Under the pieces are notes generated by a model, which was given only the letters and a program-made list of their open reading frames with translations, did no database searches and was not told the DNA's origin. The position numbers and the translations under genes were made by a program. DNA of 64,000 nucleotides, taken from the NCBI GenBank assembly GCA_024672275.1, contig GCA_024672275.1_4536.1; one strand, 5' to 3'. Shown here one piece after another: positions 3,859-37,121 of the stretch; within the stretch, counting starts at the first letter, position 1, and every line of letters starts with the position of its first letter. This DNA comes from a phage.

Positions 3859-4080
3859 ATGATCACTTTCGCTATTGTCGCCGTTGTTGCTGGTCAGGTT
3901 TACATAAACGATACATTCACCACAGAAGACAAGGCCGCAGGAGACATAACCGCCGTTTACAATGAGTGCAAGGCAGTAGAAAGGATGTTAGCGCCTTGTA
4001 TGCTAATGAGTGAACGCCAGGACGGGATAACAGTATTTACTAACATTGAAACAGGGTACCAAATGGTAGTAACAAAATAA
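3859..4080 (+). CDS. hypothetical protein (73 aa)
   Basis: ATG 3859; ORF track. Confidence 0.6.
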   Translation: MITFAIVAVVAGQVYINDTFTTEDKAAGDITAVYNECKAVERMLAPCMLMSERQDGITVFTNIETGYQMVVTK

Positions 4081-4083
4081 AGC

Positions 4084-4141
4084 TTGACACGGATTTAATT
4101 TTCAGTAAATTGTTACACGTAGGGCGGGAATAGTTCCCGCT
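4084..4141 (+). promoter_or_regulatory. sigma70-type promoter + GC hairpin cassette
   Basis: TTGACA 4084-4089, N16, TAAATT 4106-4111, GTTACACGTAGGGCGG box, hairpin AGCGGGAA-TAG-TTCCCGCT 4121-4141. Confidence 0.7.
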
Positions 4142-4158
4142 AAAAAGAGAGAAAGACC

Positions 4159-4512
4159 ATGAAAGCACAAAATACAATTAAAGAGTACGTCCTTGCCGCT
4201 ATCGATTTTAATGATTACAGTATTACAACCGAAAAAGAGAAGATCGCGGAATTGATGCGCCGTTTTAATTCCGAGTACTGGTACCCTGATAACCAATCAC
4301 GTTTTAATTATAGTATTGTTAAAGCACTTGCATCATGGTTACAAGGTTTGCCATCAGATATCAATATCGCTTTCGAATATTGGGAAATTGATCGCTTGTT
4401 AACATCCTGGGGATACATTAAAGAGAATAGCAGCGATGATAAAATCCAACGAGAAAGGGAAAATTATTGGCTTTATATTGCAGGCGTGATCCTTGCTTGC
4501 TCTTATGAATGA
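4159..4512 (+). CDS. hypothetical protein (117 aa)
   Basis: ATG 4159 after cassette; ORF track. Confidence 0.6.
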   Translation: MKAQNTIKEYVLAAIDFNDYSITTEKEKIAELMRRFNSEYWYPDNQSRFNYSIVKALASWLQGLPSDINIAFEYWEIDRLLTSWGYIKENSSDDKIQRERENYWLYIAGVILACSYE

Positions 4513-4518
4513 TAAACC

Positions 4519-4572
4519 TTGACAATTTTACAAAACAGTTTAAATTAACAATATAGCGGCAATGGTGCCGCT
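4519..4572 (+). promoter_or_regulatory. sigma70-type promoter + GC hairpin cassette
   Basis: TTGACA 4519-4524, N16, TAAATT 4541-4546, hairpin AGCGGCAATGGTGCCGCT 4555-4572. Confidence 0.65.
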
Positions 4573-4591
4573 CATATGAAGAGGAAACAAA

Positions 4592-4738
4592 ATGAATACA
4601 TCTAATCGCGCAGAAAAAATTCAATCTTCCAAGATCCGCAAAGCCTGGAACGAGGAAGTGATCCGCAAAGGCGACAAGCGCAATAAAACAAAGCGCGGGA
4701 AGAGTGACAAATATAATTGGATGGATTTAGAGGATTAA
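4592..4738 (+). CDS. small basic protein (48 aa, K/R-rich)
   Basis: ATG 4592 after cassette; RBS AGAGGAAA; below ORF-track cutoff. Confidence 0.45.
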   Translation: MNTSNRAEKIQSSKIRKAWNEEVIRKGDKRNKTKRGKSDKYNWMDLED

Positions 4739-4744
4739 CATAAC

Positions 4745-4772
4745 AAGGGCGCACCAAGCGCCCTTTCTTTTT
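4745..4772 (+). terminator. rho-independent terminator
   Basis: Hairpin AGGGCGC-ACCAA-GCGCCCT followed by TTTCTTTTT; identical copy at 10451-10479. Confidence 0.7.
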
Positions 4773-4793
4773 ACATGTAGAGGATAAACAAAA

Positions 4794-4979
4794 ATGACTT
4801 TAAACGAGCTTAAAACAGCCTACAGCGCAACATTAAAAATAGCCGTGCGCTACCGTGACGAATACGGTTTTATTGCGCAGGGCGTGATCCTGGGCTTTTC
4901 TGACGATGGTTTGATCTATGTTGATGCACATCATAATAAGGTAAAACCTGAAAACGTCATTAGCATAAAATATCTTTAA
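4794..4979 (+). CDS. hypothetical protein (61 aa)
   Basis: ATG 4794 with RBS AGAGGA; ORF track. Confidence 0.5.
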   Translation: MTLNELKTAYSATLKIAVRYRDEYGFIAQGVILGFSDDGLIYVDAHHNKVKPENVISIKYL

Positions 4980-29633: not shown

Positions 29634-30449
29634 TTATTTGTTTAAGTGGTCTTCGACCATTTTAATGAAACCTTCATTGCTGAAGGCTGTTGCAGCTTTT
29701 TCTCGGTAAACAAAAACTCCACGATCTTCATAGAGAAGTGTTTCTTCGTAATTAACTCCAGGGTTAACTACAACCATTTTTGTACCCATACTAAGTGCAG
29801 GAAATAATTCCCAATTAAAATTGATAACTTGGTTTGAACATCCTACTACTACAACCAAATCTTGCATGGTCAAAGTATCGAACAAGTGAGCCATATCTGC
29901 ATACAAAGGTGCAGCCTCACCAAAAAATACAACATTAGGCTTCACCCAGTTATAATCATCTATGTTTATACTATTGTAACCAATATCTACCAGTGTTTTG
30001 TAATCTCCAGGATGCATACGGTAAACTACTTCAGGAAGATATCCGTGTACGTGAATAACAGAATCTCTGTCTACACCTGCTCGCTCTAGTAGATCATCAA
30101 CGTTTGTTGTCAAGTTTACTATTTGGTTAGGATATTCCTTAAACCACTTTGCTATTTGAATATGTGCAGCATTAGGTTGTACATCTTTAAGCTCAACACG
30201 TCTTTTGTTATAAAATTCGTGTGTTTTGGCATACAAATCCATACCGTTCTCGTCTACACCACCGACCACTGGAAGATCTGGAGATGTTCTAACACGATAA
30301 CCTGCCTGGAAAGCTCCAATATCGCAGACCTCTTCTAAATCATATTCTTCCCATAAGGCACGACCACTATCGGTGTCTGTTCGGAATGTTCTAATCCCAC
30401 TATCTGCACTTAAACCTGCACCGCTTACAAAAATCACTCGTCTTGGCAT
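29634..30449 (-). CDS. Sir2-family NAD-dependent deacylase/ADP-ribosyltransferase-like protein (271 aa)
   Basis: Sirtuin motifs GAGLSADSGIRTFR, TTNVDDL, HVHG, VFFGE, LVVVGCS; no Cys4 zinc ribbon; RBS GAGGAGG. Confidence 0.6.
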   Translation of the reverse strand: MPRRVIFVSGAGLSADSGIRTFRTDTDSGRALWEEYDLEEVCDIGAFQAGYRVRTSPDLPVVGGVDENGMDLYAKTHEFYNKRRVELKDVQPNAAHIQIAKWFKEYPNQIVNLTTNVDDLLERAGVDRDSVIHVHGYLPEVVYRMHPGDYKTLVDIGYNSINIDDYNWVKPNVVFFGEAAPLYADMAHLFDTLTMQDLVVVVGCSNQVINFNWELFPALSMGTKMVVVNPGVNYEETLLYEDRGVFVYREKAATAFSNEGFIKMVEDHLNK

Positions 30450-30925
30450 TCTTCCTCCTCATAATCATCATAATCTTCGTCATCCAAATCGTACACTTCG
30501 TCTTGAGAATAACTCACTTCAAAGTAAATATCAAACTCCGCAAACAAACGTAGAATGTTGGACATGCTATAATAATTATCGTAGGCAGATTCAGCTTCAT
30601 AGTAAACATAAAGCAAATGGTTAGCCTTATCATCTTCCAAATATTTCCCGTCTGCATACGCATAGTCTGCATATGCTTTACCTGCATCTTCCACAAGAGA
30701 ACGATCAAGCAGAGTAGGAAATGGTTTCTCTTTTTCTTTTAGTTTGCTCACCAACCAGTGTGCAATATTATGCCAATCTGCATCCTCTCCGCTGAAGCAG
30801 CTTGCGACTTCGCCAAACTTGGCATCTCCTAAGTCCCCGCTGATAGTGATCATGGTTGAACTATTGTAACCACAAGTTTCGCAATTTGAACAACTGTTGT
30901 GCACATGAATTTCTACTTGAAACAT
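30434..30925 (-). CDS. hypothetical protein with N-terminal Cys cluster and acidic C-terminus (163 aa)
   Basis: Internal ATG 30925 with RBS GGGAGG; CSNCETCG motif. Confidence 0.5.
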   Translation of the reverse strand: MFQVEIHVHNSCSNCETCGYNSSTMITISGDLGDAKFGEVASCFSGEDADWHNIAHWLVSKLKEKEKPFPTLLDRSLVEDAGKAYADYAYADGKYLEDDKANHLLYVYYEAESAYDNYYSMSNILRLFAEFDIYFEVSYSQDEVYDLDDEDYDDYEEEECQDE

Positions 30926-30942
30926 ATTTCCTCCCATAAAAG

Positions 30943-30983: not shown

Positions 30984-31637
30984 CTATACCAGACTTTGTA
31001 GGTATTTGTCAAGGGCTTCTTGATCGCCTTGACAAACATAGCAACGGAAGTCTTGAGCCGAAGGTTGTTTATTTTCATCCCAGTCCCAATAAACATTACC
31101 CTTATAACGTGAACCAGGAAACTCAAAAGAGGCTGTATGTGTAATGTATCCTGGGCCACCAGTGAAATCACAGAATGAGAATTGGGGGTATGCCGCCTTT
31201 ACTGCCTCAATAAACCAAGCTTTACGATCTAAGGCTTCATTGATGCTATATGCATGTCTCTCCATTTCTTCCCAAGTTTTCCAGACACTTCTCTCATCAG
31301 GAGAAAAGACAAGCCATTCTGGAAGGTAGAGAGTGTCATAGTAATCATCATATTCGATCTCGGAGGCGCACGAAGCTGACTCCTCCAGTTTTGAGTAATC
31401 AAAAGCAGAATATACCCACCAACCATCTTCCAGTAAGGCTTTGATAGGGACGAAGCCTTTATCAGCATATTGATCGAAGTGTTTGACACGGTGGCTTGTG
31501 CAGTCTTCAAACTCACATTCTAAACGATATGCACCTTTTCGACGAGCCTCAAGACCGTGTGTACTGAAAATAACAACACTTCCTTCACCATCATTACGAT
31601 CTACTTGATAAGCAACTACTGGTTTTGAATTTGACAT
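30984..31637 (-). CDS. hypothetical protein (217 aa)
   Basis: RBS AAGGAG + ATG at 31637; ORF track. Confidence 0.6.
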   Translation of the reverse strand: MSNSKPVVAYQVDRNDGEGSVVIFSTHGLEARRKGAYRLECEFEDCTSHRVKHFDQYADKGFVPIKALLEDGWWVYSAFDYSKLEESASCASEIEYDDYYDTLYLPEWLVFSPDERSVWKTWEEMERHAYSINEALDRKAWFIEAVKAAYPQFSFCDFTGGPGYITHTASFEFPGSRYKGNVYWDWDENKQPSAQDFRCYVCQGDQEALDKYLQSLV

Positions 31638-32320
31638 TATTTCTCCTTATCTAGAAGATTGTTAGACAAAAACACGGCACGAGCAAAACCACGTGCGGTT
31701 AGGGATCTAAGTTGTTTTGTTTTTGCACTAGCTCCACCTAAGCTTTTCCAACCCCAGAAGCAGCCTATATGATCTACTGGTTTCTTCACTGGTTGAACAA
31801 AACCATTGCCGTGCCAAATACAAGTTTTCTTTGTATACCCATCACGGGTAGGCATTTTAGGATGAAAGCTTCCTTCCTCTTCAAACAAATACCCACCATA
31901 CTCATAAGGATCAAAGTAAAAATCGGGTTTACGCCATAAGGTTGAAAGTTTACCTACTGGGTTTTCAATCATCCAAGGAACATTATATTTGTTACCCAAA
32001 GCTTCCACTACACGAATATTAGCTAAAGCTTCATCTAATTCCTCTGTGCTACGTTCGTGTTTGCTACCACTACCTGCTAACATAGTGCAAGGTGGAAATC
32101 CAAAAATAATATCGGGTTTAGGTATCCCATGATCTTCAGGGTTGAATGTAGAATCTATCCAGGCATTCACATAGGTTATGTTTGGGTGCTCCATCCTAAC
32201 CTCGTATTTACCGTGATCCCCTTCATCAGCGTTTACACAAAAACACTTGTGACCTGCTTCGGCATAACGTAACACCATGATCCCAGATCCGTCAAACATA
32301 GACAAAACTGTTTTACTCAT
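31637..32320 (-). CDS. C5-cytosine methyltransferase-like small protein (227 aa)
   Basis: Motif I-like FDGSG, motif IV-like GFPPCT, motif VI-like ENPVG; no obvious target-recognition domain; internal ATG 32320 with RBS GGAGGGG. Confidence 0.4.
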   Translation of the reverse strand: MSKTVLSMFDGSGIMVLRYAEAGHKCFCVNADEGDHGKYEVRMEHPNITYVNAWIDSTFNPEDHGIPKPDIIFGFPPCTMLAGSGSKHERSTEELDEALANIRVVEALGNKYNVPWMIENPVGKLSTLWRKPDFYFDPYEYGGYLFEEEGSFHPKMPTRDGYTKKTCIWHGNGFVQPVKKPVDHIGCFWGWKSLGGASAKTKQLRSLTARGFARAVFLSNNLLDKEK

Positions 32321-32708
32321 TACCCCTCCATTCAAGACAAGCCATAACTTTACGCCAATCACTTTCTGTAAGAAAAATCTCGTTTGCTTTCTTCCACAAA
32401 TCTAAATCGTGAAGGGTTGGAATACGATATGTTAGTTCACAGAATCTATGCTCTTCTTCTGTAATATAACCAAAATGCAGAGCCACATCGTGAAACCAAC
32501 ACCAACCATGCATCTCTCGAACAACATGGTCATGTTGAGACATTGTTTTATGCCGTAAACCTAACCAACAAGGAACAGATACTTTAGTAGTCTTTAATCT
32601 GTGATCAACAGTATTAGAGTATTCAATAATAGCTGTCAGTTTCAATCGTGCTTTTTCTAAATCCTCGTGCGTCACTTTGAAATAACTTTCTGAAAGATAT
32701 CCACACAT
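32313..32708 (-). CDS. hypothetical protein (131 aa)
   Basis: Internal ATG 32708 with RBS AAGGAGG. Confidence 0.5.
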   Translation of the reverse strand: MCGYLSESYFKVTHEDLEKARLKLTAIIEYSNTVDHRLKTTKVSVPCWLGLRHKTMSQHDHVVREMHGWCWFHDVALHFGYITEEEHRFCELTYRIPTLHDLDLWKKANEIFLTESDWRKVMACLEWRGNE

Positions 32709-32709
32709 A

Positions 32710-33651
32710 TTAATAACCTCCTTCAAAAGGCTTTACTACATGTTGATTAGCTTTAAAACGTTCAACATAATCGTTTTCGCCCATGTTTTCATATAGCTTA
32801 GTAACAACATAAAAGTTTTCCCAAGCATATTCCCTAAACCAACCACTAGTGATGGATGTGCAGACTTTAGATAAAGCCATTATAAAACTTTGCTTAGGGG
32901 TTGGACCTCCGATCTCTCCACCGAAAGGAATTTGTGAACGTTCCAAAGCCAAAACACACGCTTCTTCATAAACACCTAACAGGCGCACATGTTTTGGTTG
33001 AGCAAAAAACTTTTCTTTGCTGGTCATAACTTCACTTCCATCTTTCATATAAGATTTATATGCCGGAGCATCCATTACCGCGATTGCTTCATGGATAGAA
33101 TCATGATCATAAACATACGGAACCTCATCACCTTTAAAAAAGTCTTTACTTTTTACGTTTAAGTTCGGATGAGAGTAAGTGTATGTTTCTTTCTCACGCA
33201 ACTCATAAATACTCTTAAGATTTTCTGGGATCTTTGCGCCCAGTGACCGCATGAAATGAATATCTTTCATAGTTTTAAAGAAGTGAGGACTATCCTTTTT
33301 AAAACGATGACTCATTTTAAGAAGGTAGAGCACATCTAAAGGAGCAACAACATGTCCAGCGTAAGTTCGACGAACATCATCAGAATCTTCACAATAACTA
33401 ATCAAAGCTTCTGTGCTATCTCCTTGAGAAGCAATATCGTATTCCAAATGTGCACCAGCTATCATTTTGACATGGCCTTTGTTTCCTTTACGTTCTACAA
33501 GTTCAACAAACTCATCTTGAGAGAACATTTTTGATAATTCTTCCCACTCTTGTTCTGTACACAGGTAATCTAAATCTACACAAGGGCGATACAAGTCTTT
33601 TCCCATGTCCATAGCATGAATTTGCAATGCACGGCTACCAATTAACACCAT
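32710..33651 (-). CDS. hypothetical protein (313 aa), weak nucleotidyltransferase-like N-terminus
   Basis: RBS AGAGGAG + ATG; N-terminal GS...(19)...DLD pattern reminiscent of Pol-beta-type NTases (weak). Confidence 0.55.
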   Translation of the reverse strand: MVLIGSRALQIHAMDMGKDLYRPCVDLDYLCTEQEWEELSKMFSQDEFVELVERKGNKGHVKMIAGAHLEYDIASQGDSTEALISYCEDSDDVRRTYAGHVVAPLDVLYLLKMSHRFKKDSPHFFKTMKDIHFMRSLGAKIPENLKSIYELREKETYTYSHPNLNVKSKDFFKGDEVPYVYDHDSIHEAIAVMDAPAYKSYMKDGSEVMTSKEKFFAQPKHVRLLGVYEEACVLALERSQIPFGGEIGGPTPKQSFIMALSKVCTSITSGWFREYAWENFYVVTKLYENMGENDYVERFKANQHVVKPFEGGY

Positions 33652-33681
33652 AATATTTCTCCTCTATTGGTTGATAGGTTA

Positions 33682-33710
33682 AGTTTATCAAGCTTCCAGA
33701 TTCCTGTCAA
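33682..33710 (-). promoter_or_regulatory. sigma70-type promoter (- strand)
   Basis: On - strand TTGACA, N17, TAAACT immediately after terminator hairpin and upstream of ATG 33651. Confidence 0.5.
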
Positions 33711-33711
33711 T

Positions 33712-33737
33712 AAAAAACCCGCCGAAGCGGGTTATTA
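33712..33737 (-). terminator. rho-independent terminator (UUCG tetraloop)
   Basis: - strand AACCCGC-UUCG-GCGGGUU followed by UUUUUAUU. Confidence 0.65.
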
Positions 33738-33741
33738 TTTA

Positions 33742-34014
33742 CTAACACATTGAGGAAGAAGAGATCCAAACACCTCTTGTGGTTAAACCATTTTCATCCA
33801 ACTCTACACCATAATCTTCACAAATGAAATCAATATAGTGATCTGCGGCTGGCGTTCCTGTAGGGTAATAAGTTTCTCCGTTACCGTAGTCACCTATCCA
33901 AGCTTGTTCCTGAAACTGTTCACAAAGTTCTTCAATCTCCTTACGAAACTTTCTTTGTGCTTGTTCCATCTCTTTAACTTTCTTTTTTATCAGCAGTTCG
34001 CCTTCAGACTCCAC
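33742..34014 (-). CDS. small acidic protein, C-terminal W-x-SSS-x-C family (90 aa)
   Basis: RBS AAGGAGAG + GTG start; C-terminus GVWISSSSMC. Confidence 0.5.
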   Translation of the reverse strand: MESEGELLIKKKVKEMEQAQRKFRKEIEELCEQFQEQAWIGDYGNGETYYPTGTPAADHYIDFICEDYGVELDENGLTTRGVWISSSSMC

Positions 34015-34023
34015 AATCTCTCC

Positions 34024-34242
34024 TTAACAGCTACTACTGTGCCAAACGCCTTGAGAATTAACGACGAAACCATCATCACCTTCACCATAACAAGAAGAGG
34101 ATTGCCAATCTTCAAAACAGATTGCGTCATTTTCTAAACTAAGACCAAAACCAGCATCTTCAGCTTCTTTTGTAAGTTCGTCCACTAAAGCCATAATAGC
34201 TTGGGCTTTTTCAGTTAATTCTTCAACATTACGATCACTCAT
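34024..34242 (-). CDS. small acidic protein, C-terminal W-x-SSS-C family (72 aa)
   Basis: Internal ATG 34242 with RBS AGAGGAGAAA; C-terminus GVWHSSSC. Confidence 0.5.
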   Translation of the reverse strand: MSDRNVEELTEKAQAIMALVDELTKEAEDAGFGLSLENDAICFEDWQSSSCYGEGDDGFVVNSQGVWHSSSC

Positions 34243-34517
34243 TAGTATTTCTCCTCTGGTTGGAAAACTGAACGACAAGCCCACATACTAGCTTCTTTTA
34301 AATGTTTAATAGCACAACGGATTTGATCAATACGTTCGTATGCAAAATCTAATTCTTTCTCTGTGCCGTCAAAAGACCCATGATATGCTTCACAATACTC
34401 TTCCTCTAAAGCTTTGAAGATTAAACCTAAACGCTCTTCTGCATCTTTAATAGCGTTAACCTTGCCAATCTTATCGTCAGTATGCGCCTTATAACCTTTG
34501 ATATCTTCGATTCCCAC
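34242..34517 (-). CDS. hypothetical acidic protein (91 aa)
   Basis: GTG 34517 with RBS TAGGAGG preferred over track ATG 34556. Confidence 0.45.
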   Translation of the reverse strand: MGIEDIKGYKAHTDDKIGKVNAIKDAEERLGLIFKALEEEYCEAYHGSFDGTEKELDFAYERIDQIRCAIKHLKEASMWACRSVFQPEEKY

Positions 34518-34528
34518 TTTACCTCCTA

Positions 34529-34726
34529 TTAACAACTTAAAGAAGATGGATGCCAATTTGTTCCAGTATTCTCATTTTCATCTTCTGGATCATAATAACC
34601 ACCCATCCCATATTCAGGGGAGAAACGGAAACCTTTACCAGTCTCATCTGCTAACTGCTCTGCTTCCGCTAAAGCCTCATAAGCTGCTTTTACGGCTTCT
34701 TCTACTGTTTTAAACTTGGTCGTCAT
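34529..34726 (-). CDS. small acidic protein, C-terminal W-x-SS-x-SC family (65 aa)
   Basis: RBS AGGAGAGGAGAAA + ATG; C-terminus NWHPSSLSC. Confidence 0.5.
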   Translation of the reverse strand: MTTKFKTVEEAVKAAYEALAEAEQLADETGKGFRFSPEYGMGGYYDPEDENENTGTNWHPSSLSC

Positions 34727-35000
34727 AAAATTTCTCCTCTCCTAAAGACATGTTGACATGAAATGCACGATATGTAAATTCGTTGTCCGTTGTGTTTGAA
34801 TAAAACTCAAATTGAACAACACCATCTTGAGAAGACAGATACATGCCAATTTGAACTGTTCCTTCTGGTACCAGGTAAGCATACTCTGGACGTAGTGTTA
34901 CATTGTAAAAATAAAGTTCCCCAACACCCATTTCATCCCAAGCTTCCCAAGCGGTAACGAAGTTACTTTCAAAACTTGTTACTGATCTGAACTCTGCCAT
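34710..35000 (-). CDS. hypothetical protein (96 aa)
   Basis: RBS GAGGAGG + ATG; ORF track. Confidence 0.55.
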   Translation of the reverse strand: MAEFRSVTSFESNFVTAWEAWDEMGVGELYFYNVTLRPEYAYLVPEGTVQIGMYLSSQDGVVQFEFYSNTTDNEFTYRAFHVNMSLGEEKFYDDQV

Positions 35001-35491
35001 AAAACCTCCTCAATCTTGTAGTTTGACTCCATCTCCAACACATTTCCACGAACGTCTCTCCGAAGAAAGGCATAAGCTTTATTAGGTATTGTAGACTCAT
35101 ATTTAACCATATCTGGCACAGCAAAAGATACTACTACTCCTGCTGGGCTTCTGTCAAGAGCCTTATTAATATTTCTAAGGATATCGTTAGCCAAGATTTC
35201 TGCCAATTCTCCAAGAACAGTTTCGGTTATATCTTTATATCCCATTAAGTATTTGTTGATATCTTTCATCTCTGTATTGTTCAGAGTATAGTCCAAAGGA
35301 TAGAAATTCAAAGCGGAGTCACTTTTATGTGTCCACATGAAATGCACCCGATCAGAGCAGAATCGTAACCCTCTATGAAGAATATCTTCTACAACAGGGA
35401 GAATTTCTTTTGTCACATCATTAACCATGTTGTAATCTAAGATTTCTGCCAAGTTTGTTCTTTGTTCACCACGTTTACGTTTAGGAATCAC
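34979..35491 (-). CDS. hypothetical protein (170 aa)
   Basis: GTG start, weak RBS; ORF track. Confidence 0.5.
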   Translation of the reverse strand: MIPKRKRGEQRTNLAEILDYNMVNDVTKEILPVVEDILHRGLRFCSDRVHFMWTHKSDSALNFYPLDYTLNNTEMKDINKYLMGYKDITETVLGELAEILANDILRNINKALDRSPAGVVVSFAVPDMVKYESTIPNKAYAFLRRDVRGNVLEMESNYKIEEVLWQSSDQ

Positions 35492-36062
35492 TTGTTATTG
35501 CCCTCATTACCAAAGGTCGTAGAAAATCGTAAATCTCTTGTTTTGTTTTCCCACGAATGTTTAAACAAGGAACATTATTGGCTTTAGCTATCTTCCAAGC
35601 CGTAGCTGTTCCACCTTTTGCATCTCCATGTTTATCAGTATTAGCACAAGCCAACAAGAAACAGGATGGAGCAGGATTTTCCAAATCTCTACCTAACACT
35701 TGATGCACATTACGTTGGTGCAATTTTCTAGCACCCTGCTTAAGCTTTTCATAGGCTGGGTGAACATCTTTGATCCATTGCACAGAGATAGCATAGTTCA
35801 TTGTATCTGGTTTTGCAAGAACAATAACATCCCCTGGAATCTGATTACCTTTGAAATTTTCCCAAGGAACATAAATCTCCTTGTTAGTAGGATTTTCAGA
35901 CTCTTGGACACCTGTTTCAAAAGCAGAATCACTACCCTCTGCCTTCCCAGACCTTAATTTAAACCCAAGGTTTGAAAGCCATTTCCCTATGCCTACCATC
36001 AAAGCCCACTCTTCTTCGGATATATCTCTACTTCCAACTCCCGTATAGAACAGTTCTGCCAT
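35481..36062 (-). CDS. Rossmann-fold DprA/SLOG-like nucleotide-binding protein (193 aa)
   Basis: Internal ATG 36062 with RBS GAGGTG; GVGSRD ... SGKAEGSDSA pattern resembles DprA/SLOG motifs (weak). Confidence 0.35.
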   Translation of the reverse strand: MAELFYTGVGSRDISEEEWALMVGIGKWLSNLGFKLRSGKAEGSDSAFETGVQESENPTNKEIYVPWENFKGNQIPGDVIVLAKPDTMNYAISVQWIKDVHPAYEKLKQGARKLHQRNVHQVLGRDLENPAPSCFLLACANTDKHGDAKGGTATAWKIAKANNVPCLNIRGKTKQEIYDFLRPLVMRAITSDS

Positions 36063-36069
36063 AATCACC

Positions 36070-36378
36070 TCAACAAGTAATTTCAAAAGGTGTATAGGGT
36101 TCCGTATTTCTCATGATCCAAGGACTGCTAGGATTGCTCGGATCATAAGGACCAAAAGGTTTTATGGTAGGTTGTGTTTCTTTCTTCTGAATCTCTTCAA
36201 AAATACGACGAAGTTCAGAATATTCTTGATCCACCATAAGATTCGGTGCATCTGATTCTACAGCTTGCAGGTTATCTTCCTTAAGAACAATCTCACGAAC
36301 AAGATTAACATCTTCTGTTTCTAAGATAACTTCTTTACGGATATTGCCTACACTTTGAATAATTGTAACCTTATACAT
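36070..36378 (-). CDS. hypothetical protein (102 aa)
   Basis: RBS GAGGAGG + ATG; ORF track. Confidence 0.55.
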   Translation of the reverse strand: MYKVTIIQSVGNIRKEVILETEDVNLVREIVLKEDNLQAVESDAPNLMVDQEYSELRRIFEEIQKKETQPTIKPFGPYDPSNPSSPWIMRNTEPYTPFEITC

Positions 36379-37121
36379 TAATCCTCCTCAAGAGTTGAAT
36401 AAAATTGAAGACCACCGTCCATATCGAAATAAGCAAATGTTAAGTTATTATTGAACACAGATCCAGTATCCATATAAACACGATTCGCATTGATAATAGG
36501 TGTTTTTACATAAGAGTGTCCATGAAACACATAATCCACACCCATCACAACAGGAAGTTTCATTCCCTCTTTAGCACAATCCACCATATCTCTGTCCCAC
36601 ATAAGTGCTTCAGCAAAACGGTTTTCCTGTGTTTTTGTCATCTTCGAAGTGTATTCTGGAATATCTGTTACAGGGAGATATTCCAAAGAAGACGGATACC
36701 CACCATGAATAAACGCAAGTTTCATGCCTCTGTAGTTAACAATGAGAACAACAGGTAAATCTTCTGTCATCATTGCTAAGGCTGTAGCTCCTTCTTCACC
36801 ACATTCTTCAAGGACCGTATATCCTCCATTTTGATACCAACACTCGAAGTAGCTACGATCTCCTTCCAGCATACCTTTAATCATCATGTCTTCATGATTT
36901 CCACGAATAGCGTAGCGATTGTGTTTACGAGTAAATTCTAAAACACAACGAAAGTTTTGCTTTCCACGGTCAGTAAGATCTCCTAAAGATACAACTACAT
37001 CTGTATCTCGGATACCTAACTTTGCCTTTCCTTTTTCATACAAATTATAACAACCGTGTAGATCTCCAATTATAAAAAGATCTTGATCGCTTTTAACAGT
37101 AATTTCTCTGTGTATGATCAC
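36378..37121 (-). CDS. Ser/Thr protein phosphatase (calcineurin-like metallophosphatase), 247 aa
   Basis: PPP-family motifs GDLHG, GDLTDRG, GNHE; GTG start with RBS GAGGAGG. Confidence 0.75.
   Translation of the reverse strand: MIIHREITVKSDQDLFIIGDLHGCYNLYEKGKAKLGIRDTDVVVSLGDLTDRGKQNFRCVLEFTRKHNRYAIRGNHEDMMIKGMLEGDRSYFECWYQNGGYTVLEECGEEGATALAMMTEDLPVVLIVNYRGMKLAFIHGGYPSSLEYLPVTDIPEYTSKMTKTQENRFAEALMWDRDMVDCAKEGMKLPVVMGVDYVFHGHSYVKTPIINANRVYMDTGSVFNNNLTFAYFDMDGGLQFYSTLEED

Follow-up and report, generated by a model that had tools for sequence, protein, structure and literature searches.

In a 64,000-nucleotide (nt) stretch of phage DNA (NCBI GenBank assembly GCA_024672275.1, contig GCA_024672275.1_4536.1), referred to here as the window, three small acidic paralogs, A, B, and C, end in a common tail built around Trp, Ser-Ser, and a terminal Cys. 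Together with the nucleotidyltransferase (NTase) gene downstream of them, whose product carries the Pfam domains DUF7277 and DUF7275, they form a conserved, phage-restricted genetic module. The reading that we favor, tentatively, is that the tail is a constant handle recognized by the NTase, either as an acceptor or as a peptide docking in its active site, and that the acidic bodies would be the effectors.

All three genes lie on the minus strand. Paralog A (33742-34014; 90 amino acids [aa] from GTG 34014, or 75 aa from ATG 33969) ends in GVWISSSSMC (33745-33774), paralog B (34024-34242; 72 aa) in GVWHSSSC (34027-34050), and paralog C (34529-34726; 65 aa, TAA stop) in NWHPSSLSC (34532-34558), exactly as a first-pass annotation of the sequence had read them. 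The same annotation described acidic paralogs, which agrees with isoelectric points (pI) of 4.40, 4.05, and 4.31 and net charges of -10, -13, and -8 for A, B, and C, and with the match of all three to PHROG 899. It also called the genes adjacent, which is true for B and A but not for B and C, where an Acb2/Vs.4-type gene intervenes. A second, internal copy of the motif in B, DWQSSSC (34090-34110), had escaped notice, as had the two most informative facts, namely, that the array is partnered by an NTase gene and that an Acb2/Vs.4 gene sits within it.

The motif frequency was compared with that expected at random. The pattern W.{0,3}SS.{0,3}C$ occurs in A, B, and C only, that is, in 3 of the 1086 six-frame open reading frames (ORFs) of at least 30 aa in the whole window, whereas residue shuffling predicts 0.065 such ORFs per window and reached three in 0 of 2000 shuffles. 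This confirms that the shared tail is real and far above chance.

The three proteins match the PHROG 899 profile, whose function is not annotated, with E values of 2.9e-12 (A), 1.4e-5 (B), and 1.2e-12 (C), each match reaching the C-terminal end of the profile, and in pairwise comparisons they share 22 to 23 identical residues over the shorter protein. They have no match in Pfam, NCBIfam, or PADLOC scans, and the family profile, compared with PDB sequences, brought up nothing but low-complexity helical noise. When 1.84 billion representative proteins were searched with a profile (E <= 1e-3, clustered at 50% identity), the C-terminal motif proved to extend far beyond the window: the family comprises at least 904 clusters, all 63 to 153 aa long, each with a match that reaches the final residue. 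The first-pass form of the motif, W-x-SS-x-C, is present and becomes sharper across the family, where 244 of 266 diverse representatives end in G-W-x-[S/A/P]-S-S-x-x-C with the terminal Cys at W+7. In these tails Trp, Ser at position +3, and the terminal Cys are invariant, and Ser at position +4 is found in 239 of the 244. The shorter W-x-x-S-S-C tail, as in B, occurs in 7 of the 266 representatives, and one extra residue past the Cys in 11; with variable spacing before the Cys taken into account, the tail that defines the family is G-W-x-[S/A/P]-S-S-x(0-3)-C. Outside the tail, the mean column identity drops to about 23%. The terminal Cys is the only Cys in 146 of the 266 representatives, Gly or Gly-Gly directly precedes the Trp in most members, and the median pI is 4.46.

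A second motif, AYGMGGTYYP, is found in 223 of the 266 representatives and appears as YGNGETYY in A (33865-33888) and as YGMGGYY in C (34592-34612); B has no YG-x-G motif. Because members of the B type and of the 65-aa type have no AYGMGGTYYP, only the tail is universal in the family. Additional internal W-x-S-S-like units (W-x-S-S-(S)-C) were found in 49 of the 266.

The AlphaFold2 model of A (75-aa form; predicted local distance difference test score [pLDDT] of 78) has an N-terminal helix (residues 2 to 22), a small sheet, and a tail formed by a strand (67 to 70) and a turn (71 to 74). The predicted Trp strand pairs with the TYY strand, and the short turn bears the S-S-x-C residues, with a pLDDT of about 71 for the tail. 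A fold search with this model found no solved structure resembling it, and none of Acb2, Tad1, Tad2, Ocr, or Arn-type proteins matched.

Homologues of A were found by tblastn in 443 phage records, including T4-like phages of Escherichia, Klebsiella, Enterobacter, Aeromonas, Serratia, and Edwardsiella, with RB69 among them, and metagenomic orthologues of C share 58 to 97% identity with it. Among 185,579 bacterial and archaeal species, each represented by one genome, no true family member was found, so that the tail family appears to be restricted to phages, mostly large lytic ones. The single cellular match, from Citromicrobium (L039), is a LexA/CI-like repressor with a chance AYGMGGTY and was rejected as a false positive.

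Some individual records deserve comment. A protein 100% identical to C is found in records named Campylobacter phage B15 and Acinetobacter phage vB_AbaM_ABPW7 (MG065650.1, OP562383.1, and others), which are Phapecoctavirus-like genomes; their host labels are probably wrong, or the records contaminated. In RB69 (L003, 3926-4232), the first paralog of the array seems to be frameshifted (ORF139c plus ORF138c), with Ser replaced by Pro in its tail, WVSSPALC, while in APCEc01, a nearly identical phage, the gene is intact, with 101 aa and the ending WVSSSALC; the copy in RB69 is likely to be a pseudogene or to reflect an error in sequencing. A 112-aa member (P0064; L120, 4001-4339) ending in GWVSSSEQC and encoded 15 nt upstream of a DUF7275 gene is labeled by JGI as a seryl-tRNA synthetase, which is probably spurious and perhaps stems from a charged helical N-terminal extension.

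The paralogs are more distant from one another than from their counterparts in other phages. In Klebsiella phage Potts1, the orthologue of A is gp4 (52% identity, E = 8e-25) and that of B is gp6 (39% identity, E = 2e-15), with the double motif in both B and gp6, whereas A compared with B or C gives an E value of only about 0.1. Orthologues across phage families that are much closer than paralogs within one genome point to an ancient split, so that, judged by sequence similarity, A, B, and C are paralogs that separated long ago and were each kept across phage families. Such conservation of each paralog argues for distinct roles behind one tail.

In T4-like phages, tandem arrays of 3 to 5 tail genes lie in the e.2-e.3 variable region near nudE and are followed by an ORF of about 320 aa homologous to the NTase gene of the window (32710-33651). 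We collected 39 loci seeded on the small proteins, with a narrower family alignment as the seed, and clustered all ORFs into families. The only other family common to more than half of the loci is a DUF7275 protein of about 310 aa, present in 37 of the 39, always downstream in the same orientation; in the other two loci the contig is cut off immediately past the array. The arrays carry 1 to 6 paralogs directly upstream of this conserved protein of 300 to 320 aa. Independent gene calls with precomputed Pfam marks likewise gave minimal two-gene modules, in which the small gene is followed by DUF7277/DUF7275 after 15 to 33 nt, and these also occur in other phage types, for example, on a 122-kb contig with PolB, RecA, and DnaB.

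The reverse search used 80 viral loci seeded on the NTase, in which the upstream same-strand ORFs were checked for the strict tail motif. It is carried by 1 to 6 such ORFs in 72 of the 80 loci, and degenerate tails (e.g., SSWVQSSC, GWAPSNVCW, and WTPSGCSY) add four more (L076, L101, L114, and L115). At L094 and L109 the upstream ORFs have no recognizable tail, and at L044 and L045 there is no candidate ORF upstream; the NTases of these four loci retain their catalytic residues. The linkage is thus asymmetric: the NTase is present at every locus that extends past the array and is occasionally found alone, which suggests that the small proteins depend on the enzyme and not the reverse. Natural fusions between a small protein and the NTase were sought and none was found, the longer NTase entries being N-terminal overextensions or insertions. 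At L044 and L045 (NTase at 4001-4927), no tail-family gene lies within 4 kb upstream, and the otherwise conserved D182 and W271 of the enzyme are replaced by Gln and Arg, respectively.

A weak hint of contact between enzyme and tail comes from their co-variation. The NTases of L099, L101, L109, L114, and L115 have Y131/W256, and their loci carry tails without the second Ser (GWQHSQVC, GWIHSAVC, GWAPSNVCW, and AWTPSGCSY) or no tail, whereas NTases with I131/F256 (and W271/D182) go with canonical tails in 102 of 104 cases; the variant enzymes form a single clade, so that this possible co-variation is confounded by phylogeny.

The partner gene itself (32710-33651, minus strand; 313 aa) lies 90 nt downstream of A, and its product matches only DUF7277 and DUF7275 in Pfam. 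The family comprises 2209 clusters at 90% identity, with about 50% identity among Phapecoctavirus, T4-like, and jumbo phages, and its median pI is 5.6 to 6.2. In a fold search, the AlphaFold model of the partner was most similar to the MenT/AbiEii nucleotidyltransferase toxins at about 15% identity, and its close structural neighbors include ANT(2'') and LnuA, which transfer nucleoside monophosphate (NMP) to hydroxyl groups. Invariant G5-S6 (33625-33639 region), D26-x-D28 (33568-33576), and E70 make up a Pol-beta nucleotidyltransferase signature, and the partner thereby shares with the MenAT and AbiE enzymes the Pol-beta NTase fold, the hG[GS] and [DE]x[DE] motifs, and a third acidic residue. 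The helical C-terminal domain is also highly conserved (K112, H115, K126, H183-D184, H187, and KVCTSITSGWFR). The modeled fold and the invariant GS/DxD/E residues fit an active, MenT/AbiEii-like NTase of the Pol-beta superfamily.

Sequence searches place the enzyme less readily. PDB searches with the partner, as a single sequence and as a profile, gave no match, and the Pfam DUF1814 (AbiEii) family was not matched by any of the 34 aligned members, for which DUF7275 and DUF7277 were the only hits even at E <= 10. Membership in the RlaP RNA-repair NTase family (PMC7824862) was dropped, there being no Pfam match. A HEPN domain (R116-x6-H123) was considered and dropped, since K112, R116, and D130 are better explained as the nucleotide-binding helix of MenT/AbiEii enzymes, and a tie of the NTase to nearby tRNA genes was dropped because there are no tRNA genes in the window.

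A conserved enzyme, old and divergent proteins that share only a terminal peptide, and a near-obligate linkage between the two are what would be expected if the enzyme recognizes the peptide. MenT enzymes are described as able also to phosphorylate a Ser/Thr of their own active site when a short protein from the gene upstream prompts them (PMC10435456, PMC11375011), and this, together with the structural neighbors that transfer NMP to hydroxyls, favors the tail as an acceptor or docking peptide. In the mechanism that we propose, the invariant tail of each paralog would be recognized by the one conserved NTase. Most plausibly, the enzyme would use the tail as an acceptor and nucleotidylylate or phosphorylate its Ser hydroxyls; at the minimum, the tail would dock in the active-site groove, anchored by its Trp and with the terminal Cys and carboxylate close to the metal site. 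Each paralog would owe its particular target, probably a host one, to its anciently diverged acidic body and would meet it early in infection and within an anti-defense neighborhood. The physical contact between tail and NTase, the covalent modification, and the host-directed function are all inferred.

Several observations weigh against this proposal. The AlphaFold2 model of A does not leave the tail as a free peptide but packs its Trp in a beta-strand against the YG-x-G-x-TYY strand, so that the tail, modeled at the pLDDT given above, could be part of the fold. Between A and the NTase gene, an intrinsic-terminator-like site lies directly 3' of A (33716-33733, minus strand; GC-rich hairpin followed by a T-run, AACCCGCTTCGGCGGGTT TTTTATTGAC) and a sigma-70-like promoter precedes the NTase gene (33682-33710, minus strand; TTGACA-17-TAAACT with an extended -10 TG); both are candidate sites by consensus match only, the latter at 10 of 12 positions, and with them cotranscription is not guaranteed in the window. 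In addition, a few NTases have no tail partner, and both partners are acidic. Linkage alone cannot separate a substrate or adaptor from an inhibitor.

A bolder form of the proposal, which we regard as doubtful, is a phage protein-tagging system in which the MenT-like NTase would nucleotidylylate or phosphorylate the tail as a universal tag and so arm or switch the small acidic effectors. If this were true, one enzyme would control a whole diversifying arsenal against host targets such as defense systems, which would represent a new class of viral posttranslational modification and a new organizing principle for anti-defense genes in large lytic phages.

The alternative that survives best, doubtful in our judgment to about the same degree as the tagging system, makes the small proteins antitoxin-like regulators. 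The NTase would then be the effector, for example, through MenT-like modification of tRNA 3' ends, and would shut off host translation or repair or alter tRNA, while the small proteins would bind, restrain, or time it through the tail and the N-terminal helix as binding elements. The gene order and the conserved N-terminal helix agree with such a role, and the 68-aa MenA1 is known to restrain MenT1 (PMC10435456). However, one very conserved NTase would not need up to six ancient paralogs of about 25 to 30% identity, each forming its own orthologous group across phage families, and the universal part here is the tail and not the helix, whereas the C-terminus of MenA1 is dispensable (PMC10435456). 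The persistence of partnerless NTases with intact catalytic residues and the missing DUF1814 match also speak against antitoxins.

Somewhat less probable still, and unlikely in our view, is that the small proteins are independent host-directed binders, in which the tail and the YG-x-G loop would form a ligand, metal, or target site (a nucleotide-signal sponge, a DNA mimic, or a pseudosubstrate plug) and the NTase would act in the same pathway without contact. The predicted packing of the Trp strand on the TYY strand suggests such a composite conserved site, the array holds a genuine sponge gene (Acb2/Vs.4), and the W-x-S-S-(S)-C unit is repeated internally in the 49 representatives mentioned above. 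Gly-rich loops and Ser clusters are typical phosphate binders. The strong acidity fits DNA-mimic-type inhibitors, and A, B, and C are indeed small and strongly acidic (pI 4.05 to 4.40, charge -8 to -13). This explanation gives no reason for the constant association of the family with this one NTase in unrelated phage lineages, and B-type and 65-aa-type members keep the tail without having the YG-x-G loop. The fold search with the model of A, which covered Acb2, Tad1, Tad2, Ocr, and Arn-type proteins, gives it no support either, nor do hidden Markov model scans: A, B, and C have no Acb2_Tad1_hairpin or other Pfam match, only the neighboring gene at 34242-34517 having one.

Far less probable are precursors or scaffold peptides resembling those of ribosomally synthesized and posttranslationally modified peptides (RiPPs), whose W-x-x-S-S-x-x-C core would be remodeled into a small product by Ser activation followed by Cys addition (a thioether ring), by a Trp-Cys cross-link, or by terminal-Cys chemistry. 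The combination of Ser and Cys in a short C-terminal stretch with tandem genes like those of precursors and an enzyme encoded next to them recalls RiPP loci, and the Gly or Gly-Gly before the Trp is in line with this. However, the "core" is the most conserved and the "leader" the most variable part, the reverse of RiPP logic; even in a single genome, anywhere from 0 to 3 residues separate Ser from Cys; a folded domain is predicted for the N-terminal part; and no dehydratase, cyclase, radical-SAM enzyme, protease, or exporter co-occurs in the 39 loci, where the NTase is the only co-occurring family.

The first-pass annotation had also considered the tail as a recognition tag for secretion, lipidation, or other modification. 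Its modification or partner idea is strongly though indirectly supported by the tail being the only universal element and by the linkage to an NTase-fold protein; a secretion or lipidation signal or a proteolysis tag is the least credible reading of all. In theory, a peptide conserved at the end of a protein might direct sorting or act as a degron, but the proteins are hydrophilic, acidic, and cytosolic looking, inspection of the N-termini of A, B, and C (MESEGELLIKKK..., MSDRNVEELTEK..., and MTTKFKTVEEAVK...) showed charged amphipathic helices without a signal peptide, lipobox, or hydrophobic stretch, no sorting machinery and no secretion or lipidation gene is linked, and the tail is, to our knowledge, unlike known bacterial degrons.

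Among known systems, the closest are the NTase toxin-antitoxin systems MenAT1 (MenA1-MenT1) and AbiEi-AbiEii, which have DUF1814 NTases (PMC10435456, PMC11375011, PMC7450476). Unlike these bacterial chromosomal or plasmid loci with a single cognate antitoxin, the module described here was found on phage and viral contigs only and has 1 to 6 ancient, divergent paralogs. It is defined by the invariant C-terminal tail, has no DUF1814 match and only about 15% NTase identity, and is known from sequence and structure models.

In the type VII toxin-antitoxin system HEPN-MNT (HepT-MntA), a minimal NTase of the Pol-beta fold covalently (oligo)AMPylates a side-chain hydroxyl of its partner protein, a precedent for the transfer from NTase to partner proposed here. 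The acceptor, however, is a Tyr near the RNase active site of the HEPN toxin and not a Ser-rich C-terminal tail, and the small proteins of our module have no HEPN match. A logical analogy only is offered by the T4-type internal proteins, which carry an N-terminal capsid-targeting sequence that directs packaging and is cleaved by the prohead protease, and which have anti-defense roles: they too combine a short constant terminal tag with variable bodies encoded by tandem genes in variable regions of large myoviruses, whereas the tag here is C-terminal, on early-type genes, and linked to an NTase instead of head genes. LysW-type amino-group carrier proteins (LysW ends in EDWGE) and the acyl carrier proteins are small, very acidic proteins that are covalently loaded at a conserved C-terminal extension or a Ser, and where CitX or MdcG does the loading, the enzyme is an NTase-fold transferase. 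The tail family resembles these carriers in size, acidity, and its conserved extension or Ser, but it differs in having no sequence or fold similarity to them, no linked biosynthetic genes, and multiple divergent paralogs per genome.

The phage anti-CBASS/anti-TIR-STING NTases described by Ho et al. (bioRxiv 10.1101/2022.06.09.495361) have the motif GS-x-AY[GAN]T-x4-SDxD with a downstream NP-x-h2-[DE]. Like the partner here, they are phage-encoded members of the Pol-beta superfamily in anti-defense neighborhoods, represented here by the Acb2/Vs.4 gene in the array. The partner was ruled out as a member by its motif spacing: it has 19 residues between GS and DxD (GSRALQIHAMDMGKDLYRPCVDLD; GS-x19-DxD) and no NP motif, and no tail-bearing proteins are described for the Ho family. 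The Ho-type motif occurs in no ORF of the window, and a looser GS...[SD]DxD scan found a single unrelated site that is not in the NTase.

Phage restriction, paralog arrays, and the invariant tail thus set the module apart from MenAT/AbiE, HEPN-MNT, and the NTases of Ho et al., and it stands a reasonable chance of being new in kind, namely, a viral tail-tagging system. In the literature we found no paper on DUF7275 or DUF7277 (PF23940, PF23942), on PHROG 899 or 2141, or on the RB69 ORF names, and searches on phage NTases, AMPylation, and AbiEii gave only the comparators cited here. The module is widespread, from T4-like phages including RB69 to Phapecoctavirus and jumbo phages of 350 to 450 kb, under DUF and PHROG labels only, and the combination of a near-invariant eight-residue C-terminal tail with one highly conserved enzyme makes the hypothesis directly testable. 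A tail that serves as an enzyme-written tag would be a new way for phages to control effector families, and antitoxin-like small proteins would make this the first module of the MenAT type to be dedicated to lytic phages. In both cases, a function would be assigned to hundreds of proteins now listed as hypothetical in therapeutic coliphages and Klebsiella phages, and with the Acb2 sponge gene inside the array, the module would add to the map of counter-defense loci.

The array in the window is tightly packed. C is followed after 11 nt by the Acb2/Vs.4 gene, whose stop overlaps the ATG of B (TAATG), and B is followed after 9 nt by A. Each of these genes has a strong Shine-Dalgarno sequence, with GGAGAGGAG at C and AGGAGG at the Acb2/Vs.4 gene. 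For A, the Shine-Dalgarno sequence AAGGAGAG precedes GTG 34014 (AAGGAGAG-ATT-GTG), whereas the 75-aa RefSeq start at ATG 33969 has none. GTG 34014 is therefore most likely the start, with a predicted product of 90 aa, which agrees with the metagenomic gene calls of 89 to 90 aa in close relatives (P0033 and others) and with the longer T4-like orthologues. The window belongs to a Phapecoctavirus: genomes of this group (phAPEC8-like Escherichia coli myoviruses of about 150 kb, e.g., WPEC1 and vB_EcoM-Ro121c4YLVW) are 99.5% identical to the window over 33000-36500, and RefSeq annotates A, B, and C as "hypothetical protein" only.

The embedded gene (34242-34517, minus strand; 91 aa, GTG start) encodes a homologue of the Acb2/Vs.4-type anti-CBASS sponges for cyclic oligonucleotides and is not a member of the tail family. 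It matches the Acb2_Tad1_hairpin domain (Pfam ID PF24729; E = 1.5e-16, 60.8 bits against a cutoff of 27) and the "Vs.4" structure (PDB ID 7uq2; E = 7.4e-29). Its apparent translational coupling within the array is suggestive context; in a related phage (L030/L040), an otherwise equivalent array is without it. RefSeq NC_052654 does not annotate the gene and shows a gap at its place, with gp203 and gp204 on either side.

Two genes upstream of C, a 149-aa PHROG 8569 protein (34979-35428, minus strand; function not annotated) ends in LWQSSDQ, a tail look-alike without the Cys that may be a chance resemblance or a degenerate relative. Three genes downstream of the NTase, a gene labeled "DNA methyltransferase" (31637-32362, minus strand) has a possible relative at L044 (5287-5985), just downstream of the partnerless NTase of that locus; the two share an FDGSG...AEAGH stretch near the N-terminus, judged by eye without an alignment. 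Further along, the gene for a phage Sir2-family protein of 271 aa (29634-30449, minus strand; Sir2 in RefSeq) and the end of the gene for a protein of 167 aa (30434-30937, minus strand) overlap; the latter protein has a cluster of Cys residues, CSNCETC, at its N-terminus, and its C-terminus is extremely acidic and rich in Asp, Glu, and Tyr.

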